Of a DNA stretch of 64,000 nt, positions 2,736 to 52,940 are shown piece after piece; the first letter of the stretch is position 1, and every line of letters begins with the position of its first letter. Made by a program: the position numbers and the translations under genes. The notes below the pieces were generated by a model, which saw only the letters and a program-made list of their open reading frames with translations, was not told the origin of the DNA and searched no databases. Source of the stretch: Convolutriloba macropyga (taxonomy: Eukaryota); NCBI RefSeq assembly GCF_964194025.1, contig NC_134471.1, forward strand, positions 58,218,001 through 58,282,000, in the 5' to 3' direction.

Positions 2736-4066
2736 CAATGAAAATTCTTTGAATTGTGCGTCAGGACTTGTCCTGCTATGTTTTTTACTTCGTCGAACTT
2801 TTTTTCGCTTTACCATTTTGCCGCTTTTTCAGCATTTTGCGTGAAATCTTTTTGACTTCTCTAGACTAGTTTCTTTCTTCTCCCATTCTGCTAAAAGTGA
2901 ACTTGAACATCAGTTGCTCAGCAAAGCAATTCAAAATGAACAGAGTCAGAATAAAAAATTGAAGTCAGAAATAGAAACGGGATAAACCCATAAAGCCCAA
3001 TTTTAGATGCCCGCTATTTGAACGTCGTTCCTATAAGTCTTAGTTACCATCTCTTATGCTTATTGGTATTGATAGTAGCCCCTGTAGCCTCTCTCTAAGA
3101 AACAGAAGTATGTTCAACTACGAAATGCCATCAAAATAAATCGGACTTAAAAAATGTTTTTGTACAAAAATCTTTTTTTTTCGATATTTTCTATTCTTTC
3201 AATCCCAATCATGCTTATTGAAATCAACGGCGGCTATTTTCCGGTTATTTCTTGGAAAAAACTTTTGTGATTGTCTGTCCAACCAAAACCTCGTACTTTA
3301 GAAAATAAAGAAAACAGTTGAAAGAGATTAGGACCGTTTTGTTGACCAGTGGTTTGATGCCCGTCTGCCATTTTTGTGAAGCAACTCTTTTTTCGATCAT
3401 CAAAGAGTTCTATTTCAAAATAATTGGAATATATTATTGAAACGTAGCTGTTGTCTGAAACACTATAATTTGACTCAATATATTCATTTAGATTTCACAT
3501 TTGCATGCGTTTGCGTCTTGTGTCTGACGAGCGTTAACTACTCAATTTAGTTGAGGATTACTTCGGTTATCAATTAAATTTTTTCGACATACCTTATTAA
3601 AATTTTCTAGGTCTCATTTTCTGCACTTGTTATTTGGTCTGCAGTAGTAATCGCTTTTCTTTTGCTGTCTTTGTGGGGTTTTCGCTCTACAAAATCTGTT
3701 ATTGAACTGAATTGCAGATAAGCTGCTCGTGTTGTTGATTGTTATTTGTTGTTGACTGCAATGTTTAGAATTTTTGGTTCTATTGTGTCACATAGCTGTT
3801 CGTTTTGTACATCATCGTCTGGCATATTTGTTATTCATATTTTTTTCAATACTTCAGGTTAGTAATCTTTAAAATTGAAATTGCGAGTCAACACTTTGAG
3901 AACGCTGTAAAAGTGCTCTATTGTCTCAAGTTTCTTCTGCTTCCAAGAAAAACGATCGAATCCATCAAATGTCTTGTTTCTAGGCCAGATGAGCATGTTC
4001 CAAGATTTTTTGTCAATTGGTATTGATCCTGATGGGAAAATATTTGAGAAAGGATACGTCCTCCTT

Positions 4067-4197
4067 AGTAGTGGATAAAACAGGGATACCAACCACCAGT
4101 AAAATTTGACCTTTTCTCCTAACGCTAATCCCGCATGTCGAATCGGGCCAAATTTTACTGCTTGTTGCTATCCCTGTTTTATCCACTACTACATATT
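4067..4197 (+). repeat. Left terminal inverted repeat; 4067-4190 is itself a palindrome
   Basis: Reverse complement of 18966-19096 with 2 mismatches. 4067-4111 pairs with 4146-4190 at 41/45 positions around a 34-nt spacer. Confidence 0.95.
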
Positions 4198-5152
4198 ACC
4201 TTTATATTCACTCAAAATCTATCCTTTCTTGTCTCACTTAGTGCAAACCACTAGTGTCGAGTTAAGCTGGTAATTAACTGTTATCAGACGGATAGTTTGG
4301 GTTCTATAGACCTTCGGTCATGCTTCGCCATCCCCACTGACTCCAGTGGCCGTCCCCAGATACTAGTATAAAGCTAGTCAGACCGTGTAACAAGCACGTA
4401 AAACCAACTTGCGAAAATTGGTGTAACCACTTCGTGGATAACTTGAACAAAAAAGAAAACTTGAACAGAAACTGAAAGAAATATTAAAATAATAAAAAAT
4501 AATACATCCCCCAATCAAAATTTAATCAATCTAAAACTAAAATTTTCTGTCTCACTTGGCGTAGGGGTTAAATCATCGAGTCTAGTTAAGTTGCTTTAGC
4601 AAACGGAAGGTTTGGGGTTCCTTCCTCACTATCTCCAGTGAACGTCCCCCGATTTGATGAATTGCTATAAAACTGAGTGAGATAAATAAACCAAATTCAC
4701 AGTTCTTAAAAAGGATGATCCCTGCTGTGAGACTGTATATTGGACACACTGTGATGGGTATACAGTTCAAAACACTGAGGTCGGTGGAAGCACAGTGATC
4801 CGTGTTTTTCAGTATAACCTGAATAAAAAAACCAGCTTAAATCTTTTATAAATTTTAAATTTTGCTAATATTTATATAATATTAAGATCCTTGCTAATTA
4901 AGCTAAAACCCAAAGTAATAGCAAAATTTAATAGTTTATTAAAAAATAAAGCAAATTTCAAAATAAGAGCGAAATCCTTTTTTTAAGCGCGAATCACTCT
5001 TTAAGAGCAAAATCGCCCCTATCGGAGTGATGTCCCAGTACAAAATCACTATCTATCGCGCTTAAAGAGTGATTTCCCTCTTCTTTAGATAACTCTTAAA
5101 GTTATCTAAATTTTTAAATAAATTTTTATTTTTTTTCCTTTTCTTTATTTTT

Positions 5153-5731
5153 TTATTTTAAATTATCTATACTCTTCAATAAATTTATATTCTCTTTTAC
5201 TTTTTCTATATTTATTCCATTATTAAAAAGAAATGATACAAAATTATAATTTTTACACGAACAACTTTCCCCAGTTTGGGTAATAGCTCTTCGAGGATTT
5301 AAATTTCTACTAAATCCTATAGTTAATTCTACATCTGGAGGTTGTTTCTTTACATGAGCTCTTATTCCATCATATCTCACAACAGAAGGACAATATAGAC
5401 AAATAACTTTAGCTAAAGTACAATTTCTACACGTATACTTACTCTCATCAAAATCAGTTAGCGGTTTTACAGAATTACATGTATTACAATTTCTAGTTAA
5501 GACTTTGGTGTTAAAGTTAGAGTAAGAGTAAGAGTTAGAGATTGAGTTAGTGTTATAGCTAGAGTTGAAGTTAGAGTTTGAATTATAGTTAGAGTTAGAG
5601 TTAGAGCTAACGCTAGAGTTATAGTTAGAGCAAGAGTTAGAGTTAGAGATAGAGTTAGAGTTAGGGTAAGAGTTAATACTAAAGCTAGAGTTATATCCAG
5701 ATTCATCTTTAAAAGAACAACCAGTTTTCAT
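5153..5731 (-). CDS. Polinton accessory protein: Ser/Asn low-complexity N-terminus plus Cys-rich (Zn-binding) C-terminus
   Basis: 192-aa ORF; (SN)n tract encoded by a TTAGAG-type hexamer repeat; CxxC pairs (CNTC, CRNC, CLYC) and a downstream His. Confidence 0.55.
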   Translation of the reverse strand: MKTGCSFKDESGYNSSFSINSYPNSNSISNSNSCSNYNSSVSSNSNSNYNSNSNFNSSYNTNSISNSYSYSNFNTKVLTRNCNTCNSVKPLTDFDESKYTCRNCTLAKVICLYCPSVVRYDGIRAHVKKQPPDVELTIGFSRNLNPRRAITQTGESCSCKNYNFVSFLFNNGINIEKVKENINLLKSIDNLK

Positions 5732-5880: not shown

Positions 5881-7356
5881 TCAATTACACCCAACATATT
5901 TAGCCAAGATATCAGTTACATCTCTAGTATTATCTTTAGACGCGACAAACTCTGTTAAAAATTTCTTCCCCGTCGTATTGAGTGTATTAGTTTTATATCT
6001 TCTATCTAAAATCACTTCAAGGTCTAATTCCGTTCTTTCTCTAACAAAATTTATAATTTCATCTCTAATTTCTTCATTATTTCCATATAGTCTGTTTAAA
6101 TACCTTCGTCCCTCTTTATTTAAAATTCCAGTCTCTTTACTTATATACTCTCGTTTTAGCTTTTCGATAAACTGTTTTCTTTGCTCTTCTTCTCTGTATC
6201 CAAAATGGTGAAACATCTGCGAAGCAGTTCCACTGATGGACGAAGTCCCATTAACTAATGTACTTGCTATATTCAATATATTACTTGCACTCGTTGCCAC
6301 ATGTCCAGCAGTTTTTACTGTTGTGTCATGACTCATATAATTATATATCATGAAACATGTACCTATGACGCCTAAAATAGTTGATATTAATCTAAAACCA
6401 TCTGCTTTAATCATTTCTTTTGTTAAAACATCATTCTATATTTCAATACCTTTTAATGTAAGCAGTTTATTAAAGTAGAACTGATAATTATCATGATTAA
6501 TAGTATGTCTGTCTGTAGCATATATCGTGAGTGGTTTCATATATGCTATAAGATTATTTTTGTCTTCCCTTTCTAATTTATCTTTTAAACTCAGAGCTTT
6601 TAAATCATGGAAACCAACTCTCGAGTCATATATCATAGTTCTATTCTTATCACTAGTAATAAAAGTATTCTCTTTCCTATTATATTTAATTACACCATAA
6701 TGAAGTTCATCTGACATTCCGTCTGTACAATTAAAATGGTTACTATTTAACTCACTAATTATTTTAATGAAGTTATGTTCACATTTATATATTTCATTTA
6801 AATTTTTAAATATATCAGCTCCATTATAAGTTGTTAAATAAATAGTATCACAACTTGTTCTTGTTGTATTAATTATTTGGGCTGGTTTATGACACATTAC
6901 AATCATTTGAATATTATAATGTCTTCTTTCTGTGAAATAATAAGCTATATCCTTATTTAACTTATCACCCATATCATCAAGAACAATTAAACTATCTTTG
7001 AATTTAGACTTAATTTTTGATGTGATCATGTTTATATCGCATGTATTAAATCCATTATAAAACTCACCAGTCTCAAGATCTATCCAATCTCTATCATCTT
7101 TACATACAATGATTATATTTTTAGCTTGCTGTTGGTTTTGGTTTTGGTTCTGGTCTTGGTTTTGGTTTTGGTCTAAGTCTAACTTTAAATTTTGTCTAAT
7201 AAAATATGTTTTACCTGTTCCAGTTCCACCATAAACAATAGTATGTAATGGTGACTTTTCATATTCAAATCTAACTAGACTCCTATTCATAAATCCACCA
7301 AAGCTTTCCTCTAGTTTTGTATATTTTTTCGGTATTGAATCATATATTAAAAACAA
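5881..7356 (-). pseudogene. Packaging ATPase 1 (A32/FtsK-HerA-like) with long C-terminal extension, split by one in-frame TAG
   Basis: Walker A GGTGTGKT, Walker B LIVLDD, and the RHYNI motif in ORF 6436-7356. The stop at 6436-6438 is followed in frame by NDVLTKE and then ORF 5881-6414, which contains a hydrophobic segment (LISTILGVIGTCFMIY). Confidence 0.85.
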
Positions 7357-7424
7357 AATCCAATTATGGTAGTAAAAATTATAACTCGGCTACCTGTCTC
7401 CATTTTTATATTGATAATAATGCT

Positions 7425-7829
7425 ATGAGTGATATCACAATAAAAGATATCGGAAAAGATATAAGTCTAACACCAATTGAAATAGTGATGAGAGATCAAA
7501 CTCCAGATAACACAAGTGAACCTAACGTCAACATAATTGTAAACCTACATCCAACTGATGGTACACATCGGGTTTTAGTTATAAGAAGAGAAGGTGGTCC
7601 TGTGTATTACTTTGATAGTTTTGGTGTAGAATCCCCACCATTATTTTTAGAAGAATATGTTGATCTAGGCTCTAATGAGAGAATACAACAATATGATGAA
7701 TCGTATTGTGGGGCTTATTGTTTATATATGATCTATCTTATTGATAGAGGATTTAGAATTAACAAGGCTTTGAATATTCTAGTTAATCAATGTAAATATC
7801 CGGGAATATATAATGAGTGTTTTTTTTAG
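7425..7829 (+). CDS. Adenain-like (adenovirus-type) cysteine maturation protease
   Basis: GTH(R)V, YYFDSFG and IQ...CGAYC motifs give the His/Asp/Gln/Cys arrangement of adenain. The usual W after His is R here (CGG, probably from TGG). Confidence 0.9.
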   Translation: MSDITIKDIGKDISLTPIEIVMRDQTPDNTSEPNVNIIVNLHPTDGTHRVLVIRREGGPVYYFDSFGVESPPLFLEEYVDLGSNERIQQYDESYCGAYCLYMIYLIDRGFRINKALNILVNQCKYPGIYNECFF

Positions 7830-7834
7830 GTTGT

Positions 7835-8240
7835 AATGTTAATGATAAATATAATGTTAATGATAATGATAATGATAATGATAATGTTAATGTTNNNNNN
7901 NNNNNNNNNNNNNNNNNNNNNNNNNNNNNNNNNNNNNNNNNNNNNNNNNNNNNNNNNNNNNNNNNNNNNNNNNNNNNNNNNNNNNNNNNNNNNNNNNNNN
8001 NNNNNNNNNNNNNNNNNNNNNNNNNNNNNNNNNNNNNNNNNNNNNNNNNNNNNNNNNNNNNNNNNNNNNNNNNNNNNNNNNNNNNNNNNNNNNNNNNNNN
8101 NNNNNNNNNNNNNNNNNNNNNNNNNNNNNNNNNNNNNNNNAATGATAATATTAATGATAATGATTATGTTAATGATAATGATAATGATAATGATAATGTT
8201 AATGTTAATGATAATGATAATGTTAATGTTAATGATAATT
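7835..8240 (+). repeat. (AATGAT/AATGTT)n hexamer microsatellite encoding (Asn-Asp/Val)n; spans the assembly gap
   Basis: Directly visible on both sides of the N run (7895-8140). Confidence 0.9.
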
Positions 8241-8379
8241 TTATATATCTATTTGATGAAAAACATCAAAGGGGTAAACCTAACAACAAAGAATATCCGC
8301 GAACAGACTCCGTCTGTGGTAAACCAAGCGGTTTTTCCGATCTTAGTAACAATATCTCTGTAAGCATAAATGAAGATCT

Positions 8380-9023
8380 ACAATCATGGCTAAATGATGA
8401 TAACATAATTACTGAAGCTACACTCCGAGAGAACTTTAGATGTATAATATCTGGTCCTAATGAATGTGGTAAGACATTCTTATTATAAAAAACTAATTCT
8501 GGCTAGAATATACTTTGATAATCTATGCATCATTGGTCCTACTGGTGATCAATATGAAGGTGTAGAGAGAATAAACGATAAAGCAGATGTTGAGTTTGTT
8601 AAAGATATAAAAGGTTTACCCTCTCCCAATCAACTACCAAAAGATTTAAAGAAACTATTGATATTCGATGATGTTAGAGCCAAAGAACCAGTTATTAATG
8701 AATACTTTTGTAGGGGTAGACATAACAATTGTAATATGATATAACTTAATCAAAATCTATTCACAATAGATAGACAGAGTGTTAGAGAGAATTTTAATCT
8801 ATTTATTTTATTTGAACACAGAGGTAAAGTCCTCATATCTATATATCAAGATTTCTTTAATAATGTTGAACTTAGTTATAATGATTTTGCTAATATATGT
8901 AATAAGGTATGGAAAGAGGTAATTATATTATGGTAATCTTTTAATTACATTGTCATTGATATAGCTAAAAAGAAAAATATTAATGGTAAACTAAGAATTA
9001 ATTGGGACCGGAGAGTTTTGTAG
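8380..9023 (+). pseudogene. Packaging ATPase 2 (A32/FtsK-HerA-like), frameshifted
   Basis: Walker A SGPNECGKT; after a frameshift near 8485, Walker B LLIFDD, GRHNN, then *LNQNLFTIDRQSVREN...KLRINWD, ending at TAG 9021-9023. Confidence 0.88.
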
Positions 9024-9073
9024 TTTAGTTTAAGTTTAAGTTTATATCTCGACTAGATCAACGAAGTTGCTGG

Positions 9074-9815
9074 TTACACCAGATGTAAAGTAAAACTTAA
9101 TACATCACCATTAAAGTCTATAGGTCTTCCATGCTCATCTTTAATATGAAACTCTATATATTCTATTCTATCTTTAGTTACATTTTGATAAAAAGATATT
9201 AGTTGGTATAATATTTATCAAGTAACCTGGTGGTTTGGTTAGGGTAAAAGTATTTAGTATGTCTGTGTTATTCCCATTATCTTTAACACCAGATATCACA
9301 TTACAATGAATGTTAATAGCACTAAAATCCATAATATCAACAATTTTCTGAGATGTATATTTACCTTGTTCATATACTATTTTTCTAAAGCCCAGTAATG
9401 GGGCTATTGAATTTTCTATGTCAAAGTTAATTACACCTTGTTTTATTTCCATTAAACTTTTCATTGTACTCTTATCAGGTTCTATTATAACATTACCATT
9501 AGTTTCTCCTTTTATTAATTCTGCTATTTCGATTAATTCATATGCACCTGGTATAACAGCTAAAATACGGGTCTTTGATCATGTTTCACCTTGGGTATCA
9601 TATAAAAATTGATTGTTCCTTCTATTCACATTAAACACCAAATTATAAACAGATAATCTAATTAAACCTAATTTTGATGAGTTAAGTATAGGTTAACTAA
9701 GAGTAAACTTTTCTGTTGGCTTTATCATTCTAAAGTTAAGTGTATGCTCTTCTTTAGTTTTAGTTAGAGTTTCATGTATCTTTTGTAGTTCATATAGAAT
9801 TAAATTGTCTGTCAA
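9074..9815 (-). pseudogene. Minor capsid protein (penton-like, single jelly-roll)
   Basis: Reconstructed LSVYNLVFNV..NNQF, PGAYEL, SIAPLLGF, INIHCNVI and C-terminal IKDEHGRPIDFNG...TLHL motifs typical of Polinton/adintovirus mCP. Start decayed to TTG; stops and frameshifts present. Confidence 0.8.
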
Positions 9816-9932
9816 TTTTTTTTAAATATTAGATTATATTTATAGTTATGATTACAGCTTCGGTTATAGTTATACCTATAGTTATAATTATGGTTATAGT
9901 TATAGTTGAAGTTAAATTTTTGGATTATAAAA

Positions 9933-11175
9933 ATGAACTTTAATTTGGATACAAATTAATGTTATAATAATGATATACAAAAATTAGGATTATAAAATAT
10001 AAACCTAATAAACTAGCAACAATGAATACTGTTAATACTAATATTAATATCATACTCAGTAGAGAAGAGAATCATTTAAATTTGCGTGATTCGTATCTGG
10101 AGATAGAGTTTGTTGTATCAGATGATGCTGGTGGTGTATTTGCTAATAATGCTAATATCAGATTAGTTAATTATGGTATGATGGCATTGTTTAGTTCAGT
10201 TAAACTTGAAACTAGTGGTGGTAGGACTAATGAATATAGAGATCCTTGTCATCTGAATCTATTGATGGATATGTTATTAACTAGTATTGATGATGAATAT
10301 GAGAGTGGTTTTGTTAGAGATCAAGGCAATAGAGATAGTCAACTTAAAGGTGACCATATTGCTGCAGAACAAAGTCATATATATATGATGATTAAGGTGA
10401 GTGATCTATTTGGTTTTGTAAATGATTTAGAAAAGATTATGAATGGTTCAGGATTTAAACTATTATTTTAAAAAAATAATAATGATAGAGCTCTATTTAC
10501 AGTTAATGCCGGTGCTGATGCAGTTTGTAATGATGGTAATTTAGATATTAGAGATATATCATGGTGTGTGATCAGTATTGATCCTGGTAATGACAATAGA
10601 ATTATTGTACAAAAGGGTTGAAGTAAAAAGAATATTGTAGACTTTAGCTATTATGAAAGAAAGACGTTTTATAAGAGTGTACCCAATGCTAGTAGCTTCT
10701 TGTTTGATCTAGGTATGGAAAGTGGTATGGAAAGACCACAATATATAATAGTATGTTTTGAAAATAATAATGTTAATGAACAAACTCATGATGCCGTACA
10801 TTTGATAAAATGAATGTTACTGAAAGTTATTGTAAGATTGGTAGTGAGTTTTATCCCGAGGTTTGAATGAATATTGATTATGGTACTAATAATTATAATG
10901 AGGCTTTTAAACAGATTATCATCTTTAATAAAGATTATACTGGGCTGCCACATAATATAAAACCATATATAAATCATAGAATATTCAAAGATAATTATAA
11001 AATATATGTATTCGATACTAGATATCAAAATGATCATATAGATCCACAACTAATACAACTTAATTTTAAAATTAGTGCTGCAGTTGCCGATGTTATATGT
11101 CATGCATTATTATTAACCAGAAAGGTTATTAGTACTAATAGTGAAGGTAATAAGATAGTTGATATAGTCTCGTAG
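9933..11175 (+). pseudogene. Major capsid protein (hexon-like, double jelly-roll)
   Basis: ORFs 10022-10471 and 10867-11175 plus intervening frames: DSYLEIEF, ALFSSVKLETSGG, ERPQYIIV, GSEFYP, NYNEAF, YKIYVFD. About 410 codons, divergent from the mCP gene. Confidence 0.8.
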
Positions 11176-11569
11176 AGTCTAACAGCCGGAGGCTTATTAT
11201 ATCTTAGGCCTAGTTATAGTCATGGTCATTGTTATCTGCGAAGCAGTTCATGATAGTCATCGTTATGATTATGGTGAAACATTGGCGAAGCCCAATAGAC
11301 ATAGTTATGGTGAAACATGGGCAAAACCCCATAGCTCTAAACTATTTCTTACATGTCTTAACAAAACCCTTAGCATAAATAATATCTAATTTCTTTTTAT
11401 TCTCTAGAGATAGGACTCCGTTCATGCTACGCCATCGGCCCTTAGGTTCAAGTTTTGTCTTAGGCTTAGTCTTCGAGCTTCGCTCGCGGGTGGAACCCGT
11501 AGTCTTAGGGTTAGGTTTAACAACAAAAGTATTCTACTTTTTAGCTTCCAATTTTTTTTATATATAGAA

Positions 11570-12704: not shown

Positions 12705-13406
12705 TAGTAAAAATTCTTTCTATTTCTTTCATTATATTTTCTTGTTTAAAACCATAATGCATCTCAAGTCTTGCCTTCTCTTTATTATCAACTAACGTAC
12801 TTTTTAAAAGTATAGCAATTATATATTGTACTATAACTTTTCTAAGAGATTTATTGTATTTTGTCATTTCTCTTAGACCGTTAGTAAACATATCATCTAA
12901 ATATATGTTAGTAATATTTTGATTAAACTTATTATTATCAAATTCTTGTTTTATTTGATTATATTTAGAGATAGTATCAGCAGCAACTTTATTACAAAAG
13001 TCAACAGTATTTATGATTTCATTTGCTGATTCAATAAACTAATTAGTTCGTCATTGACTCCTGTTTCATTTAGTTGTAATGTTTTAGTTGTGACTTTATC
13101 AAATTCACCTTTTCTTAGCTCAGTTACGTTTTTACTTAAAATATCTTTTTTATTATTAGAAGATAATGAGTTATTGTCACAATACTCTTTATTAACAACA
13201 TCTTTTTCATCTATCGGAGGATGTACATTTGTAATTTTATAGGTATCCTTCATATCAATATTATCATTATCTTCTAGGAATAACCCACGAACCTTACTTA
13301 GTGATAAGTTGTTTGTTGATGTTGATCCGAGAAGCGGGTTCCCCGATGGACCTCCGGTCATGCTTCGCCATTGATGTTTCGCTTGGTTAAATCTATTTCT
13401 TGTCAT
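12649..13406 (-). pseudogene. Putative fiber/virion appendage protein; ORFs 13011-13406 and 12649-12891 are probably one frameshifted gene
   Basis: IDMK..YKITNVHPPIDEKDVVNKEYCD resembles the N-x-x-x-P...D-x-x-[NT]-K-x-Y-x-D fiber/adhesin neck motif, followed by coiled-coil-like sequence. Confidence 0.45.
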
Positions 13407-14326
13407 CTTTGTATTTGTTTACAGTAAGAAATATATCTAACGATTCTAAAACTTTGATTAGATTCAAAGTCAAACTCGGATTTTGATAGTTCCTGTTCAT
13501 AATATTTACCTTCTATTATCTCACCATTAATATCTTTTGCTTTATATGTTGTTGGTTGTGTTTCTAAAACTTCATTAACAAATTGTTCTGTATTCCAATT
13601 AGAAGTGTATCCCTTAGAGAAGATTTTGCGTTTATCTGCACTTCTAACATAATCACCAACTTTAAATTTTGGTTCAATATTAGTAGAAGTAGATATAATC
13701 TGCGAAGCAGGTTCCCTGATATCTCTAACTGTATCAGGATTATTAGAAGCATCAACTGTTGTCATATTAATTGTTGAATGAATGTTATTGTTATATGTTA
13801 TGACTGCATCATTTAGTATATTTACCCAATTACCATCACCATTGATGAACATTGGTTTTTTAATTATATGTAATAATGTTCTATTGAATCTCTCTATAAA
13901 CACAGCATTTAAATCACTATAAGTAGAATATAGTTTTGATTCAAATTATTTAAGTAAAGATTTAAATGTTTTTTTTCTAAAACTCACTACCTCTATCTAC
14001 CCATACCTTTTCTGGCTTTCGACTTTCAGAGCCACCCTGTGGACCTTCTGATAGGATTGTTTTAAAACCTTTAGTTATAGATAAACCAGATTTATTCTTT
14101 AATCGAATAGCCCATGCATATTTTGTGAATATATCTATAACTGTTAATATAAACTTATAATTATTATTGTATTAACTTAGAGATGACTTATCAATTAAAT
14201 CAGCTGACCATGTTTCATCTTTATATAATGGTATTATTCTTTCTCTTCTAACTTTGTTATTTGAGGACTGAAAACTTCTTTAGCTAATAGTTGTTGTTGT
14301 TGTTGTTGTTGTTGTTTTTCCATCAT
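13403..14326 (-). pseudogene. Retroviral-like (rve) DDE integrase of Polinton type
   Basis: Reconstructed WSADLID, LTVIDIFTKYAW, WVDRGSEF, IERFNRTL, YNNNIHSTINMT, KFKVGDYVR and FSKGYTSNW motifs; several stops; no C-terminal chromodomain evident. Confidence 0.93.
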
Positions 14327-15329: not shown

Positions 15330-15448
15330 TTTTATATGTTGAGAAACATTATTATACTATGTATGAATTAGATCTATAATATAAAAACAATACTGTCTTA
15401 TGTATGAATTAGATCTATAATTATACTAACTACTATTTATTTTTATGT

Positions 15449-18400
15449 TCACAGATCATTATATAGTTTAATAGCAGCTTCAATTAACATTCTATCATCA
15501 TTAGTAGTCAGTTCTAAAATATTTTTCATCAATGATCCTTAAGACTCTTTACTTACATCTAACCCTAATTTTATTAATAGCTCTAATATAGTATAATTAA
15601 TTTTATTTACTAGATCTCTTTTGAATAGATATAGATTCTCATCATGAGGATAGCTTTTAATATTATTTACGTAAAGTTTTATCATCAATTGTGTTTTGGA
15701 CTAATTTTACTTGTTTTTGCTGTTGTCATGTTATCAACTTTTTGTATTCTACATTCATCTACACTTCTCTCTGTGTTACACATTAGTGCATTATAATACT
15801 CCTCATGTTTAGCATTGTTACAATTCTTTTTTCCCTTCTCTTTAGTTTTATTTGGGTAGTCTTTGAAGCTATATGTCTTTGGTGTTAGGGCCACAAACTC
15901 TCCTTTGATATTACTTCCCATTTCATGTTTGAATTTACCAGAGACTTTATTATTAGTTTTGATTGATGGCGCCAGATTGGTAGCGTTTACATCATTGCCT
16001 AGCCGTATAGGTTATTCTTGTCTATGTACCATATCTGCGAAGCAGGTTCCTTGATTGACCTCTGGTCATCCGTGAAACGGCTTCGCTGATGCATCGCCAT
16101 TTTACTTCCATTACTATTGTTGACTATCCTATGAACCATTATACCGCATATGCCACTACTCTTTGCTTCAACAAAATCATCTAGCATTTGTTTGTCTTGT
16201 AAGGTATCTAATGAAACACTGCTTGACATTAAGCAACAATCAAAACTATAATCCGGGAGACTATTGTAATGTAATAGGTTGAGTCCACATTCTTTCATAC
16301 TTATTCTGATATATTCATTCATGCAGCAGTCTAATATTTCCACATCATTCTGTAAAAACTCTGTAAAACAGTTAGATCTTTAGCAGTTTTATGTCTGTTG
16401 TCTTTATTAAAGCTATTGACTTCTTCTTGTGTTGGTAATTTATTAAATAGAAAGGATTTGAAGTTTTCTATATTTAGATTACCTATAACTTCTTGGTACA
16501 ACTTTGTTGTGGTTCCCCAGGTGTCTAAACCAAAGTGTTCATATGGATATAATATTTTAGTTTTAAACCCATAAATCTTTGCCATTTGATCTAGAGGCAT
16601 AGCTAAGAAGTTATAACTATCTAAGAATTTGAGACAACCAATGCTAAACATCTTAGACTTAACAGCGGCTAGTGTTATGTTATCTACTTTTCTTCTATCA
16701 TTATTCTGCTTAAAGAGTTCACTGTATAGTAGATTGAAGTCATAGCCAGAGCCATTTTGGAATATTACAGGATTGAAGTTCTGTTGTTTATACCTCAGAT
16801 TACATATTTTACATGCTGGTCCTCTATATTTACCAGTTTCATAACAAAGATCTCTTACTTTATTAATACATGTTTTACTGCAGATATGCAAGTGTTATTA
16901 GTTTCATGATGTAATTTATCTTCTTCATTGAATATCATTTGTTTGTTGCGCTTGAAGCTATTCTCAGTTTCTATTTCTAATAGATCACTAGCAAATCTTT
17001 TAATACAATCAAGACCGAAGTAGTATTTGAAATTACCCTGGCAGATGTAACCCACACTTATTGGTATTTGTTCAGCTATTACACATTTACAGTCATTAGT
17101 TGCGACTTCAACAATGCAACATTCTATATCAGCAGTTATAACATTTTTATATTCTGACGCTTATGTTCATTTATAAAAGTAATTTTTTTCTTCTTAGGAC
17201 AAAAAAACCTCGGGTTCGAAAGAGTTGTTACATTCATGTTTGTCGTATTTGATTTGTGAATCAAACCAATATGTACATCTGTCACAGTAATAGAATTTGT
17301 GGTTCATTCTTTTTTGTCGATCTAATAAGGTTTCTATGTTTTTAATTAGAGCACAGTGTTCTGTAATACCATCTCCCAATCCAATATTCTGACATCTTTT
17401 CTATCTTTATCAAAATCATCCATTTGTTTAAACAATTCTACTTTGCCCCCATCACAAGGTGTTTACACCCAAATATTAACATTGTACACCTTCTGTATTC
17501 TTATAATATAACCAAAATCATCTTCATCTCGTTGACGTGCTTCAATTAGATTATTTACATATTTAATCTCGCGTGTTGCGTGGTCCATAGCAGGATGTAG
17601 CCAAGCAGTAATAATTAGTTGCAAGCAGTTATTTTTGTAACTACGTATTTTTAACATCAATTTAGAGTTTTTGAGATCAGGGGGTAGATCTATACAACTA
17701 CCAATAGATGCTTTAGTTGGTTCAATATTTATCTGAATACTTCTCAATCCACGAAATTCGAAGTCGTAGCCATAATCTTCATATAATTCCTCTTCGAAAT
17801 CTAGCCATTGTTTGAAATCACCGTAGTCATATATAGCCATATTAATAATATAGTCGGTGTTGAAGAATATTTTTGTAATTTTAACTTCTTCTTTGGTTCT
17901 CTTCTTGTACTCACACTGGGCTGTGACCTTATATTTAAAACTCTTAACTTTTCTAAACTGATAACAGTCTTTAATTTCCTCTAATATGTAATCAGTTGCT
18001 TCGTCTATATCTTCAATGTAATTCCCACCTTTATCCGTAATATAAAATTCTCTCATGTTCTGACTTGAATTTATATCAAACTCTTTTGTGTTTTCTAGAT
18101 ACATGCGATTGTGACTATATGAATGAGTAGTTAGAGCTATTTTAATTCTAAGTTCTTCATGACATTCTTTACATTCAAACTTAATTCTGGTGTAGATATT
18201 GTCGTCGGGTTTAGTTTTAGTTTTAATAATATCTTTAGTTTCAGTTTTAGTAGAAGGTTTGACATAGATAAAGTCTCCATCCGAATCATACATTTTCATT
18301 ATAGTTTTAGTTGAGGCTTCAGTTTTAGTTGAGGCGTCAGTTATAGCCTCATCCAAATCAGAATCAAACTTTTTCTCCACTAGTTCTTTATGTTTGAGAT

Positions 18401-18503
18401 CGTATGATTGATGTCTGTATAAACCCTTCTTTGTTTCAAAGGATAAATTACAGACGTCGCAGAAGTTCACACTTGTGACATTACTGTTTGTTGAGTGAGA
18501 CAT
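15449..18503 (-). pseudogene. Protein-primed family B DNA polymerase (pPolB), fragmented and internally deleted
   Basis: N-terminal C2H2-like fingers; HCALIK; exonuclease I (ADIE); Zn insert VRD(L)C..TGKYRGPAC..CNL; exonuclease II (FQNGSGYD); KFLDSY; YPYE; motif A YIDKNNLYG; C-terminal GKFKHE...EFVALTPKTYS...KEKG. Confidence 0.92.
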
Positions 18504-18556
18504 GGTGTATTTTATTAGGGAAAACTTTGGAAAAAATTTTTTTTGAAAGTGAAAAA

Positions 18557-18855
18557 ATGAAGTGTGATAAGTGTAAAATTAAGCCTTGGAAAAATGTTGT
18601 AATGATTGCAAAGAATTAGAATATTGTTGTTATATATGTAAAAATATAGTTAAAGTAAAAAATTATATTAAACATTTGGGAGACCATTATGATAATTCAG
18701 ATCAATATCTGGCGTGTAATATGCGTAAAGTTTACAAACATATTTCTTTCTTTAGGTTTAGAAATGGAAGATGCAGATTGTGCATCTATCTTAATAGATA
18801 TAGATATACAAATACCAAAGATAGATTCAAGGAAGGAATATGCCAAAAGGTTTAA
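18557..18855 (+). pseudogene. Small Cys-rich (Zn-binding) accessory protein
   Basis: MKCDKC then, after a frameshift, CCNDC...CCYIC...HLGDH...CRLC. Confidence 0.45.
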
Positions 18856-18965
18856 TATAAAAGTGTAGTATAGACAAGAAATATTTTTTGTGATGTACTT
18901 AAGTGAATTTGGAAACGAGCTTATTATTAATTTCTAGAATTCAGTTTAATGCTAGTCTTAGAGTG

Positions 18966-19096
18966 AATATGTAGTAGTGGATAAAACAGGGATAGCAACA
19001 AGCAGTAAAATTTGGCCCGATTCGACATGCGCGATTAGCGTTAGGAGAAAGGGTCAAATTTTACTGGTGGTTGGTATCCCTGTTTTATCCACTACT
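18966..19096 (-). repeat. Right terminal inverted repeat; 18973-19096 is itself a palindrome
   Basis: Same structure as the left TIR, followed immediately by the TSD CTCCTT. Confidence 0.95.
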
Positions 19097-20469
19097 CTCC
19101 TTCTCTTCGATACTCAAATTGAGCAAAGATAATCAATTTTGTTCAATCATGGATCATGGTTGTTTGGCGCACAAAATTTCAGTTTGTATTGATTGCTGAC
19201 ATTTGAGTTCCGTTTGCAATTTGAGTTGTTTATTTCTTCATTTGCATTTGTTTTGCATTTCTTTATCCAGAAGATCGGTCGGATCAGTTACTGGGCTTTA
19301 TATTAGTAATTCGGTCCAGCAGGAAGTTTTACTTGTTTAGGTTTTTCCTATAACAAATGCTCAAGGGCGATGCTCATGGATGGGGGCTATCTGTGGTGCT
19401 AACTCTGCCATGTCGTTGTTGTCAACGTGTAATAACGATGGTTACTGAAAAGCAAAGCAAATCGTATAGTTTGTTATTTGGGAGAATTTGACTTCGCGTT
19501 GCGAAATCGCTAAAGCTATCAGCAATACTAAGCAAGAATCCAAGTCCAGTGTTTGCACCCCAACTTCAATGATAAATCATTGCTATTTGTGCAGAAAACA
19601 AAGAACCAGTTATTGTCCAAAAACCTGCGAGCAAAATAGATTTGTTGAAGCTTTTGCAACATCAAAAAATTGCCTTTAACATTGTCAATGGAAAAGTGTA
19701 CATAAAACAGTTTCAAATCACATGTTCAAAAGCTCGTTTTCGTTAAGTTTAGCTTGTTTCTGGTTTGTAATTCTTTGGAGAGAGTTGTTTAGTCAAACTT
19801 TTGTCAAATACGTATAAGGAGACGAATAAGTTCATACTGAGTTTCATAGCACTTCTTAAAAAAGAAGTGCAAATGAGTAGCATTGACGTATTTTTTAAGT
19901 TAAGCGAGCACGTAGTCATAAAATAGTCTCAATGCAGAGCACAGTTCTGGCGGATAAAATTAGCAGCTTAAGAAAATTCGTTTTTCCTGTTTGACCCCCC
20001 CCCCCATCCAGCTGTTGTTTTCACCCGCACTAATGTCATATAAAACGTGATTATTTCTGCATATCACATGCCTTTTTTGCATGTTTTATGGATCTGGAGA
20101 ACCGTCACGTATTGTTGGTGATGGCACAAACGGAAAATGTCCTATTTTTTTGCTACCATTTGAATTTTATACGACGTTTTTAATCAGTGTTGTTTTCGAT
20201 CCTTTCGATTTGTGCCCCACGTTAGAGAGCACGTGCTATTACAGAGTAAATCATTATGTAGAAAATAGGCAAGTGCGTTTGCGGGTTTCAAATAATATGC
20301 CTCCACTAAGCTGGTGGGTACAATTGAAAATAAATAGTCTTAACTCTTTTAAACAAGAAAATAATAATATAACCAAATGGGTAAAGTTTACGTGCCTTCA
20401 GTGTAGTCAGGGATAAAAAATTTTATAATTGAAGTAATGCAATAATCTTCTGATTAATGCTTAATGCTA

Positions 20470-46229: not shown

Positions 46230-47722
46230 TTCGGTTTCCGCTTGTTTTTACTGGAACTACGACCGAAACTGAAAGAAATGAGATGAAATAGTGGAAAAGA
46301 CCAAGAAGAGTACGCAGGGTTGAACTGTGATACGTTTTCCGGAGGCACGGCGTATATTATTCAAGAGTGTATTCCGAAAAAGGCCGGGCAATCGATTCAA
46401 ATTCCCCTTGATCAACTGTGCCCTCTGGTAAGTCTACCAGGTTGAGTCTAAAAGACTCTATTTTCTCCTCGTGGGCAGCGTTTACAAAACTATCAGGTAT
46501 TTCGACTCCTATTCTCTCATTTTCCACCGTTCTCAGAACTTCAAACAAAGACTGCAGTTGTGGATGCAGTTCAGCAATAACAACTTCGCTTGAATTTTGC
46601 TGACATGCTTTTGAATCCGTGAATAGAACGATTGTTGGGGTTTTCAACCCATCCATGGCCAAAGGGTCTATTCAGACAACTTCTTCATCCCGGTATCTGC
46701 TCACCCTGTAATTGGTGGTTCACTCGAGTATAGTTTATAAAGTTAAAATCGTCTTCACGGGACGTGATTAGATAAGCTGAGTCGTCCAGGTATTCCGCAG
46801 CTGCTTCGTCGTAGAATTTCAACTTCGCGCGGACATGGTCTCAAAACAGACGTCGGTAAGTTGAAAAACAAGCTCGAGAGACATGTTGAGGAGGAGCTTT
46901 GTGCCATAATACAGAGTAACAATCTGGAGCTCCTCTACAATTCGAATTCATCTTTCCTTCGGTAACTTCTGCAAAATTATTGTTATATTCCCGAACCAAC
47001 AAATAACTCTTGTCAAATCTGTACTTGGTTGCTGTCGATCCGTTAGCTATTGGCTGCGGAATAGGTACCGCGCGGTAAACACGATAAAAACCATTCGCAT
47101 GATGAACCGGAATATTAAGCAAAATTTTCAAGCTATTATGAGAAACTATTGTCCATTCAACAAGTTCGAACCCGTAATACGTCATGAGATCATGTCGTGG
47201 AATTGCCTCCTTCAGGGTGTCCAGTTGAAGTCCATCAAAGAACTGCCACAGAACTTCCGGTGGAATCAAAGTAGCAGGAATGTATCCCTGAGCCAGAGAA
47301 CCCAAGGCATCGTCCAGCACGTAGCCAAAATCGGGCAGGATAATTTTGTAGGCAAATAACTCCAATCTTATAGCAGTCATATGATCGCTGAAAATTCGAA
47401 CTCCTGATGTGAAGGCAATGCTCTTTTTAAAAGTTGATGCCCACTCATGACTCCTTCCTCACTGTCCCGATTTTTGGTCACCATAAGCTCCATAAGATAA
47501 CGTTTTCGCTAGTTGCGAAACCGCAACTCTAATAGTGTGAAATTTCGCGTTTGCAAGACCGGGAATTGGCACGGCTACCCACGTCGCCTCGAGTCCACTT
47601 GAAATTATCACTGCCGCTTCAGGAATGAAAACCGCTCCAGCCGTGTTTCTTTCGATCTCTGATTGCACTGTTCCTGCAAGAAAGAGCGACGCAAGGGCCC
47701 TGCACACAACCACCCTTCCCAT
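46230..47722 (-). pseudogene. env: env-like fusion glycoprotein (baculovirus F/errantivirus-like), fragmented
   Basis: Signal-like MGRVVVCRALASLFLAG; LAQGYIPATLIPPEVL; LNIPV...YRVYRAVPIPQPI; Cys-rich segment; located 3' of the integrase. Confidence 0.65.
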
Positions 47723-48004
47723 TATGAAGGATTGTATCTAAATAAGTGTCAATATTATTTCAATGAACACTATTATGAACCTAGATCTTTAATCGAGATC
47801 AATAATTTGCCCAATATACAAAAAGTATTTTTTCAACGATTGGATTTAATTTTTGCTGGGAGGAGCAACCCCAAAAAAATTCCTAAAATCTTTCAATAGT
47901 ATCAAAATAAAACGTTTATTCGTCAATCCAGAGTTGGATCACGGGCTTAATATCTCAGGCGAATCTTTAGCTTGGATCACCGGTTGTTTTTCCACGTCAA
48001 GTTC

Positions 48005-51000
48005 TTAGTCGTTACTATCAGATATTGGACTTTCATCGTTGCTCTTGTTTGATTCCCTTAGATCACTACCTTGTCCAGTGTTTGTATCAGCTGACATGTC
48101 TACATTCACCGCCACATTGCAGGAGTTAGAGTCTTGTTCGGCCTCAACTAACGGGACGGAGGGCTCATTTGATCTCGCATCACGTGATCGGACTGGTGCC
48201 GCAGCAATATTACGTCTGCGCTGTTGCCTTTCATGGAGCGTGTTTTCGGCATTCCTCAAGACCACCCCATCATCATCTTCTTCAACTTGATCGTCAGGGA
48301 ATTTATTGAAGAAATCTTGCGAAGAAATCCGGTGTAGGTCTCTTGTTCTTACCACTTGCGTCACCTGTTTGCTCCTCATTATATGGGTTCAGCAAACTGA
48401 AATGAACTATCCTCGTTTTTCTCGGTTTTCCTTTTTTGTGAATCATGTAGTTGACTTCAGAAGTCGTTTCCTGGATAATGTGAGTGCCTTCGTAGTAAAC
48501 AATGAAATTTTTTGATTTGGCCTTTTGCTTCGAGTAAAGCCAAACTTTTGACGGTTCGTATGGTTCGCCATAAAGCTTTTGCTTTAGTTTCCTACCCGTT
48601 GTCGTCCTTGCAGCGCATGGAAGACACCACAATAACCCTTTTTCTATATCCAATCTCATTGACGGCCACCAGAACCTCTGTTTGACTCGGTTGAGTGTTT
48701 TTTCGAACGCAAAATGACCCACTAACGGGAGAGTCATGTAGTTGCTCTAAAATATAATTACTGCCACTTGCTGGAACATTCAATTGTAGAACTGGCTCCT
48801 CCGAGGAAACGCTCGCTTTCGTGAATCACTTACGATACAGCATTCCGTTCCAAATTTCCCTGAGGGTGATATGGAGTTGGCATGCTTCGATCCAGTACAG
48901 AGGACTACCTGAAAACTATATTCCTGTACGAATTGACACATTCGGAACGTCATTCCCGTTGCATCATCGTCCATGTCTTGCTGAAGAGCCAGCGAAGGCT
49001 AGCATGATCAGTTTGAATGATGAAATGCAGTCCCCATATGTAATTTTTATACCACTTCAACTCTTGGATCACTGCAAAAGCCTCGCGTATGGTTGCGTTT
49101 CATTTCTCTTTTTGTGAGGACCATACTTGAGTAAACAATTAGCTGCTCCACGCAATCAACAACATTAGAGATCACTGCTCCTCAACTCACTTTGCTAGCA
49201 TCTTTATCAATGATGAAGGGGCAATCAAAAAGAAGAAACTGCATCACTTGCGCGATAGCAAGTTCGACTCGAAGTCAATCAAATGATAATCGGCAGTCGG
49301 AATTCCTTTTTTTCCTTCTTTGTAAATGATGTAGTTGACTTCTGAAGTCCTTTCCTGGATCATGTAAGGACCGTCGTAGGGAACAAAGAACTTCTTTGAT
49401 TTGTCCTTTTGCTTCGAGTAAAGCCAAACTTCTGCAATTTCGTAGGGTTCGCCATAAACCTTTTGAGGTAAAGGTCCTTCTGTAACTGCTGGTTTACTCC
49501 TAATTGATCCCTGGCGTTACCATAAGCTTCAAGAAACTGTGCCTCGAGCCACTCGATAAACTCTCTCTGGCTGAGTTCTGCATCATGGGGTTTTGGATAA
49601 AACAAGTCAATTGGATACTGGCATTCTTGTCCAAACACTAGACTAAACGGCGTCACTTGTGTGGTCCTATGAACGGTTGTGTTGTAAACAAATTCTACGA
49701 AGCGTAACATCTCGACCCAGTTCCAAGGATTACCAGCACAAGACTTGGATATGACATCTCCCAAAACTCTACTGTGCCTTTCAGATTGGTCATTTCCCTG
49801 AGGGTGATACGGAGACGTACGCGTTTTGTCAATCTTCAGTAATTTGCACATGTCGAGGATTAAATGACTGCCAAATTTCTTTCCTTGATCTGTGTGCAAA
49901 ACATCTGGAACCCCGAATTTTAGAACCCACTTCTCAACAATTGCTCGGGCGAAATCATCTGACTCCGTACTCACGACAAGTGTGCTTAAAACGAACTTTG
50001 TAAACATATCAGTTACAACTGGAATATGTTTTGACTTTGAAGCTTTGGCCATCGTTACTGGTCACAGAATATCGGCTGCTTCCGTATGAAATCGAATTCC
50101 AACTTTAAACGACTGGAGGACGGCAACAAGTTTCCTACCCGTTGTCGTCCTTGCAGCGCAAGGAAGCCACCTAATAACCGTTTTTCTATATCCAATCTCA
50201 TTGACGACCACCAGAACCTCTGTTTGACTCGGTTGAGTGTTGTTTCGAACGCAAAATGACCCACTAACGGGAGAGTCATCTATTTGCTCTAATATCTAAT
50301 TACGGCCACCTGCTGGAACAATCAATTGTAGAACTGGCTCCTCCGAAGAAATGCTCTCGTTCTTTAACCACTTACGATATAGTATTCCGTTCCTAATTGA
50401 CAGTTCATTCCATCTTTCCCATAGTGCCATTACTTCTTGCCCGTTTTGAGCAGCTTCATCTTTGGCTGTCAGGTTGGTTCCAAGTTTAGACAGTTTTCGT
50501 TCTCGTCTAAAATTGCCTAAAAGAGAATGCGGCTGATCGCCTTATCTTATCATTGCATCAACCTCACGTCCGATTCACCGCGAGTCCGAGTTGTTGAGTC
50601 CTGTTCTTCATCGTTTTCTAGCAGTTGGTCATCTTCTAGATCCACTGTTCCGTTATGCTGACCCTCAACTGTAAGCCGTAGATGATCAGTTGTTTTGCAA
50701 ATTGCTGTGTCTACATCCACAGCCTCGGGACAATTTCCTGTCAGTTCTTCTCTTTCCCCGGGTTCCCACTCCGGATTCTCTTCTTTGCGCCTTGTGAGAC
50801 CGTCAGCGTTGGCATGCTTCAATCCAGCACGGTGGACTACTTGGAAATTATTTTCTTGTAGGAATTGACACATTCGGAACTTCATTCCCGTCGCATCATC
50901 GTCATTGTCTTGCCTGAAGAGCCAGCGATGGCTAGCATGATCAGTTCGAATGATGAGAATCAGTCCCTATATGTAGTTTTTATACCACTTCAACGCTTGG

Positions 51001-52940
51001 ATCACTGCAAGTGCCTCGCGTATGGTTGCGTTTCATTTCTGTTTTTGTGAGGACCATGCTTGAGTAAACAATTGGCCGCTCCACGTCGTCAACAACATTA
51101 GAGATCACTGCTCCTCAACTCACTTTGCTAGCATCTGTATCAATGATGAAGGGGCAATCAAAACGAAGAAACTGAATCACTGGCGCGATAGCAAGTTCGA
51201 CTCGAAGTCTATCAAATGATAATTGACAGCCGGAATTCTACTCGAAGCCAGCATCTTTCTTTGTGAGATCCGCGAGTGGCCTAGCAATCTGTGCAAAATC
51301 TCTCATGAAGCGTCGATAGTAAAAGCAGAAGCCAACAACAGACCGAATTGTTTCTCCGTCTTTGGTACGGGCCAATGCTTTACCGCCAAAACTTTGTCAG
51401 GGTGAGGTTTTGCTCCACCGTTGCCAATAACATGACTAAGATATACAACTTCTCGTTGAAATAATTTACAGTTTTTGGGCTTCAAATTCAAGTTCAGCGC
51501 TCGCAGCGTTTGAAAAATGGTTTGTATGTGTTCCAAGTGATCAACTTTATCAGTACTTTAAGCCAGGTCTTCGTCTAGGAAGATGAGAATATTTTTGTAG
51601 AGGTAGTCTCTGAAAATTTTATTCATCAATCGTTGGAACGTTCCAGGTGCATTTGACAGTCCAAAAGTTATTCGAACGTATTCATGAAGACCTCCATCCG
51701 AAGTCAGGAAAACCGTTTTTTGACAATGCTCCGGGGCCACAGGAATCTGCGAATATCCACTTGCCAAGTCCATTGAGGAAAACACTTTTGCTTCCTTCAG
51801 TGCATCAAACGACTGGTTGATCTTAGGAATTGGGAAAACATCTTTGATTGCTACGTCATTTAGCTTTCTGTAGCCAATGCCAACTCGTAAGCTCCCGATT
51901 TTCTTGTTCACAAGTACTACTGGGAAACTGTAAGTACTTTGAGAGGGTCGTATGATCCCTTGATCCAACATTGCATCCAATTCTTCCCTGATAATCTCTT
52001 TCTCCTCTGGGAGGAAATTTTGTTGGAGGGCTTTCACCAGTCTCAATTCTGTGTTTCACAACATTGGTGCAGCCTAACTCGTCGTTCGTCAAGGCTAAAA
52101 CGTCTCGAAACTCTCCTACTAAGGCTCTCAAATCATTCAAATCATTGCCTGTTACACCAGGCGCCGATAACTCTCTGGATATCGTCTTCAAGTTGAGACG
52201 TCCCTTTCAACTCAATTTGTAATTGGTTATCAAGATGTGTTTCAGCAGTCTTGGCAATGTGATCGAATAAGTTTGGGACCATTTTCGAGCTATTAGAAAC
52301 CTGTAGCATGCACAATCATTTGATGGTCATGAGCAACCCCCTCAAAATTAGTGTCCGACCTTTTCGGTCCTTCAATTCGTATTGGCACTGTTTATCCCTC
52401 TTTCTGATCTGTCCAAAGCTGATCAGTATCCAAGTCGATAATGCAACGTTACCCCTTTTAAGTCTCAAGGCCCAGGATCATGGGGTTGTCGAGATCAGGC
52501 ATGACTAAAACTTCTATACCAGTGTCGTTTTGCCCAAACATAGATGCCATTTAGCTCTGCTAATAACTTCAACTCGTTTACTGTCTGCTGTTTCCAGTCT
52601 ACCAGTATACTTTTGCATTCGATCCGGAAAATCCAAAAAAAAAACAATGTATCGTAACTGATAATGTTCGTGTTTGCTCCCGTATCTATAAGGAAGGTTA
52701 GCTTCGTGTCATCCGAATCAACTGAGACTAATATTCTGTATGCCTTCTATCCTTGCTCAGGCAACTCACGGATTGTGTCTGTTGTGGATGTCTTTGTAGC
52801 TAGGGTCTCGTCCAATTCGTGATACATCATTAACTGATTGGACTGCGATCCTTCGTTATTGGTGGCAACCGCTGTTTTGGGTTTATTTTTGTATTCAGCC
52901 GGGATAAACCCTTCCCTCCGGAAATCTCCCGTGGGCCCGG
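48005..52940 (-). pseudogene. pol: Gypsy pol (protease, RT, RNase H, integrase) with a partial internal duplication
   Basis: LTFLIDTGA (~52675-52700); PVVLV, MDLASGY, FGLSNAPGTFQRLM, IFLDE; FIIDTDAS; HANADGL; GHFAF...WWSSM; HTDQG, TSPYHPQGN..ER; GPY. Confidence 0.92.

Follow-up and report, generated by a model that had tools for sequence, protein, structure and literature searches.

Relatives of a decayed Polinton/Maverick copy point to a constitutive protease-ATPase fusion rather than a frameshift site

Intact members of the Polinton/Maverick family described here were shown to carry a single ORF of ~430-550 aa, in which a protease, a Cys-rich cap, an acidic linker and an A32-type ATPase follow one another. 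Judged from the proteins of these relatives, the protease-linker-ATPase fusion is real at the level of the family, and the supposed frameshift site in the copy at hand is a mutation of that copy. The copy lies within the window, i.e. the whole stretch of 64,000 nt of DNA that was analysed.

Comparison of the TIRs and flanks delimits a Polinton/Maverick element of 15,030 bp with 138-bp TIRs and a 6-bp TSD. As is diagnostic for Polintons/Mavericks, the TIR ends are of the AG/AGT type next to a 6-bp TSD, and pieces of both a pPolB and an rve integrase gene are present. The content comprises family B polymerase pieces, an rve integrase, two P-loop ATPases and a protease. The features are as follows, in window coordinates:

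4061-4066, no strand: left TSD, 6 bp; the 6-mer is identical on either flank
4067-4204, no strand: left TIR, 138 nt, starting AGTAGT; 96% complementary to 18959-19096
6436-7389, minus strand: ATPase 1, a stand-alone divergent A32-like P-loop ATPase, stop-to-stop; Pox_A32 30 bits, cut-off 22.8
7401-7826, plus strand: adenain-like cysteine protease domain with His, Asp, Gln and Cys motifs; up to 92% identical to relatives, aligned by tblastn
7820-7829, plus strand: T-run and TAG, a reading-frame break; shared with a few other decayed copies
7830-8400, plus strand: Asn/Asp-rich low-complexity linker with a 6-bp tandem unit; TRF period 6 at 7834-7892 and 8141-8239
8400-9023, plus strand: ATPase 2, canonical Polinton A32/FtsK-HerA packaging type by tree and motifs; fused in relatives
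9174-9578, minus strand: ORF piece, possibly minor capsid protein from position and recall; without Pfam match
9974-11175, plus strand: fragmented ORF, possibly major capsid protein from size and position; without convincing Pfam match
13403-14250, minus strand: rve integrase in pieces, two frames; Pfam rve E 9e-4 on 13980-14171, sub-cut-off
15400-18578, minus strand: family B polymerase pieces; DNA_pol_B_2 E 3e-4 on 16334-16894, sub-cut-off
18959-19096, no strand: right TIR, an inverted-repeat match to 4067-4204
19097-19102, no strand: right TSD, 6 bp; the 6-mer is identical on either flank

Gene fragmentation keeps the DNA_pol_B_2 and rve scores under the Pfam cut-offs, the polymerase and integrase genes being scattered across several frames. 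The putative capsid frame holds 12 stops (best frame, 9970-11180), and for double or single jelly-roll capsid genes the ORFs at 9174-11175 are fragmented and gave no convincing Pfam match. The element in the window is decayed, a dead member of a high-copy Polinton/Maverick family. Read contigs from four of the eight listed public runs reveal a very high-copy family over 7300-9100, where they are informative outside the repeats at 7830-7894 and 8141-8248, the junction and the gap lying beyond their coverage. At the ATPase breaks, most other copies in these contigs have a sequence unlike that of the window.

Several further observations concern the element and its surroundings. Within each TIR (4066-4191, 18973-19096) lies an inverted repeat of 46 nt that could form a hairpin. 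Tandem repeats of 6 bp are found inside element genes at 5510-5695, 7132-7180, 7834-8243 and 9834-9907, and encode the two-residue tracts (SN)n, (QN)n and (ND)n. A short GC-rich motif is present in four copies, all within the element (6217, 11236, 13700 and 16035, minus strand), with none in the remaining 49 kb of the window (chance mean 0.55). Apparently the same DNA recurs as in-frame inserts in loops of the protease, linker and ATPase of relatives, read in differing frames and strands (QGTCFAD, IREPASQI, ICEAGSLI, DLRSSFAN), and the protease loop lengths of relatives step by seven codons (12, 19, 26; 7, 14). The pattern resembles that of a small insertion element, specific to this family, which colonises coding loops. 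Elsewhere in the window, decayed LTR-retrotransposon-like ORFs with reverse-transcriptase matches lie at 46800-52100 and 58400-63800, possibly Gypsy-like and BEL/Pao-like. Such decayed reverse-transcriptase elements in the flanks point to an animal host.

The junction itself proved to be as the sequence-only reading had described it. The protease ORF ends in ...ECFF at a run of eight T (7820-7827) closed by TAG (7827-7829), and frame translation gives FLGCNVND(ND)n in the -1 frame after the run. An assembly gap of 246 N (7895-8140) falls inside the linker, and past it the (ND)n frame continues with neither stop nor Met up to the Walker A motif GPNECGKT at 8453. The fusion gene in the window carries at least five lesions, the T-run/TAG being one and the other four having gone unmentioned in that reading. 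The frame of ATPase 2 changes near 8483-8490, directly after Walker A, and stops follow at 8742-8744 and 8934-8936. The window protease is also missing the N-terminal start region, since the tblastn match opens at residue 13 of relatives and the ATG at 7425 aligns with their residue 20.

Two explanations of this junction had been offered, a constitutive fusion broken by an indel and programmed -1 frameshifting, together with the suggestion to search for adenain+A32 fusion proteins and to compare T-run length across copies. The search recovered relatives with the whole arrangement in one ORF. The protease query gave 190 matches among 243 candidates when run against longer proteins, and the best 120 of the 190 are 73-93% identical to the window protease. 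Within these 120, the ORF reaches the segment preceding Walker A in 93 and the ATPase core in 54, while protease and all four ATPase pieces share one ORF in 31; the linker is the end point in 27. A fusion relative is colinear with the window DNA through protease, linker and ATPase (tblastn). A spliced-gene artefact was considered and rejected because this colinearity holds on genomic DNA across the linker.

The sister copies were compared as proteins, 545 relatives in total, of which 230 carry the junction anchor. The anchored sample is skewed to long proteins, two of the searches having been restricted to these, and leaves aside 39 proteins whose end lies before or at the anchor, as well as 25 lacking the anchor motif. 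Read-through in frame for at least 15 residues past the junction was seen in 194/230, and 145 of the 194 cross it through the same Cys-containing tripeptide. The other 36 stop at the junction in many different ways; endings identical to that of the window number four in the 230, beside a dozen other truncation types. The heptamer and its frame offset are therefore not conserved. Frameshifting is unsupported, and the data support a constitutive fusion that was broken in the window through an indel within a T-rich stretch. Under the refutation criterion that came with the two proposals, the intact relatives refute frameshifting and back the fusion.

Short relatives do accumulate at the junction. 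Among the best 120 of 619 in a near-length set (maximum length 235 aa), 41 end at reference positions 150-156, i.e. at the junction, and the window-like ending occurs in one of the 48 anchored proteins. Since the endings vary and the cluster members listed span 34 to 545 aa, this pile-up is best explained by query-coverage ranking, the 235-aa limit and the indel-prone T-rich tract. A minority subpopulation may have a free protease.

Viral programmed -1 frameshift sites of the gag-pol type provide the comparison for the window junction. It shares with them an in-phase U UUU UUU heptamer before the stop, but the heptamer is unconserved among copies and no stimulatory structure was seen. XXXYYYZ heptamers occur 97 times on the plus strand of the 15-kb element in any frame, and T runs of eight or more occur six times; the window heptamer is no more than chance expectation. 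The folding test was limited to the 68 nt between the heptamer and the 246-N gap, and in this stretch no stimulatory RNA structure was found, the sequence folding worse than shuffles (z = +1.42).

The anatomy of the fusion was examined in 41 near-full fusions. Between the junction and Walker A lie 105-206 aa (median 157), 43% of them Asn plus Asp; the window has 209 codons, gap counted. The His, Asp and Gln-Cys motifs of the protease are kept in 40, 41 and 41 of the 41, and the Walker A, Walker B, arginine finger and Gln motifs of the ATPase in 40, 41, 38 and 38, the Walker A count being partly circular because the filter demanded a Walker-like motif. These motifs are presumably catalytic. Of 32 full fusions, 30 retain four clustered Cys at the protease end. 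Median pairwise identity over 150 random pairs of these 32 is 91% for the protease, 45% for the linker and 89% for the ATPase, and the low value for the linker could stem from the mutability of microsatellites instead of relaxed selection. Linkers are acidic, with a median net charge of -15. No Met is present in the 60 residues upstream of Walker A in 29/32, and therefore no separate ATPase start.

The identity of the protease domain rests on comparison of features and motifs. Residues 1-157 of the fusion P0005 scored 0.95-0.96 to Peptidase_C5 clusters of 143-163 aa (Atlas features). There was no Pfam protease match for the window or for six fusions, with weak C5/C48 matches in one relative (E 0.08-0.1). 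A PDB sequence search returned nothing below E 0.98, and the AlphaFold model of the fusion P0004 was uninformative (pLDDT 36). Searched as a whole protein in the Atlas, the fusion gave only tentative matches, at 0.84-0.85, to A32 clusters of 219-309 aa, none of them listed with a protease family.

The two ATPases of the element differ. In a tree, the fused ATPase 2 clusters with P0309 (support 98/98) among ordinary Polinton-type ATPases, P0309 being its closest stand-alone relative at 47% identity. The model of P0309 is confident (pLDDT 88) and matches STIV B204 (E 3e-8) and A32-like viral ATPases, so that the fold match belongs to P0309 and not to the fused domain itself. Pox_A32 matches in Pfam are weak and sub-cut-off, in 2/6 fusions. 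By placement and motifs, the fused ATPase 2 is of the canonical Polinton A32 type. It shares the Walker A, Walker B, arginine-finger and Gln motifs with STIV B204 and poxvirus A32, but the relatives viewed have no N-terminal protease, unlike the fusion. ATPase 1 lies on the opposite strand in a head-to-head arrangement with the fusion gene. It shares no more than 22% identity with any of the other 23 ATPase rows, and its branch in the tree is long. By the tree it is not an ortholog of the usual Polinton motor, and its role is probably accessory. It also carries a (QN/QD)n insert, with His at the position of the Gln motif of the fused ATPase.

Taken together, these features suggest that translation probably covers the entire fusion and that the protein acts largely uncut, its motor part bringing the protease to the packaging vertex. 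The whole fusion would be made as one chain, the ATPase ring would dock at this vertex, and the linker, long and disordered, would deliver the protease to the assembling capsid, with protease and motor in a 1:1 stoichiometry. A fuller version can be put forward tentatively and is, in our estimate, somewhat less probable than not: the protease would be permanently fused to the motor subunits on an acidic leash, coupling maturation to packaging, while ATPase 1 would serve a separate step or a mixed ring. If true, such a permanent protease-motor fusion would be a new way to build double jelly-roll virions.

The foremost alternative, though an unlikely one, is a tolerated accident, in which the stop between neighbouring genes was lost in one founder and spread by a recent transposition burst that needed neither gene, the linker growing as a microsatellite. 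The range of the fusion is relevant here. It has not been seen outside the family: a divergent-protease profile found 96 long proteins, all from ENA, of which 82 had been found previously and the remaining 14 share 63-96% identity with P0005. Nine of nine distant ATPases viewed (31-47% identical) begin shortly before Walker A without an N-terminal protease, and the nearest protease clusters in the Atlas are stand-alone in length. Because all long matches are ENA proteins, each from its own contig, and may stem from one or two host genomes, the fusion may be the accident of one lineage. The linker is a 6-bp repeat and so its length changes preserve the frame by themselves, and the element holds a second ATPase. 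However, catalytic motifs are kept in both domains, and the several linker subtypes are all in frame. Moreover, in P0391, a single decayed-looking protein (46% identical), the chain likewise continues from the protease to the Walker A region, via a short linker, which hints that the fusion may predate the repeat expansion.

The fusion seems restricted to a single expanded family, perhaps present in one or two hosts. This is to be read with the deep HMMER search in mind, where the best 150 of 2445 were crowded by the same family and may hide distant fusions; a profile comparison, A1 vs A3, was not counted, being partly circular as A3 includes same-family rows. Pattern matches to related loci in viral contigs (4 and 58) and in metagenome contigs (598) yielded no confirmed locus, and the phage collection gave no match to the locus. 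Three distant Polinton-type ATPases, P0366, P0393 and P0410, are extended by ~220-250 aa at the C-terminus, and one of them includes a C2H2 zinc finger; they could represent further fusions or gene calls that read through. Such extensions would fit a wider tolerance of this ATPase for fusion partners.

Slightly less probable again is a polyprotein, i.e. one chain from which the protease releases itself, the fusion fixing only co-expression. The adenain-type cleavage motif, which we take to be (M/L/I)xGG or (M/L/I)xGxG, was found in 0/32 linkers, and GG of any kind in 11/32; this is a consensus for adenain, and the specificity of the protease in this family may differ. On the other side, a long exposed linker is easily cut, related clan CE proteases process virion polyproteins, and the mavirus protease cleaves GG↓X and GX↓G according to PMC6048507. 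Programmed -1 frameshifting at U UUU UUU, giving free protease plus a minor fusion, is highly improbable: the in-phase heptamer, the four relatives ending alike and the short relatives at the junction are outweighed by read-through in most anchored relatives, the diversity of short endings, the lack of structure within 68 nt, the commonness of such heptamers and a gene decayed throughout, its downstream ATPase itself being broken three times.

The fusion bears on how the maturation protease enters the capsid in Polinton-lineage viruses and how its action is timed with DNA packaging. A natural protease-motor fusion is direct genetic evidence of both acting at one place, and provides a single protein for testing cleavage, oligomer state and cross-activation. 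It also calls for caution in annotation, as one ORF conceals two core genes in this family and slippery-looking junctions in decayed copies need checking against sister copies.

A protease-ATPase fusion in a Polinton family seems undescribed. The accessible portions of the literature, including PMC11161782, PMC3671162, PMC8502044, PMC8097293, PMC10748475, PMC6048507, 10.64898/2026.06.19.733378 and 10.64898/2026.10.13.758929, contain neither such a fusion nor a two-ATPase Polinton, although supplement maps could show such a fusion. Vertebrate Mavericks have pro and atp even in opposite modules (PMC8097293), and separate length cut-offs are given for protease and ATPase (PMC10748475). With the Polintons/Mavericks (Polintoviricetes, adintoviruses), as described in PMC8097293 and PMC8502044, the window family shares the 15-kb size, AGT-ended TIRs, 6-bp TSD and pPolB, along with the rve integrase, adenain-like protease and A32 ATPase. 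However, their described pro and atp are separate genes, whereas the window family has one ORF plus a second divergent ATPase. For mavirus, PMC6048507 reports that the protease MVP and the ATPase MV15 are both detected in virions, and that the protease must be enclosed during assembly, a closed shell keeping outside protease out. The combination of a clan CE protease with an FtsK/HerA ATPase is common to both systems, but MVP and MV15 are separate proteins without a covalent tether, whereas in the window family the two are fused.
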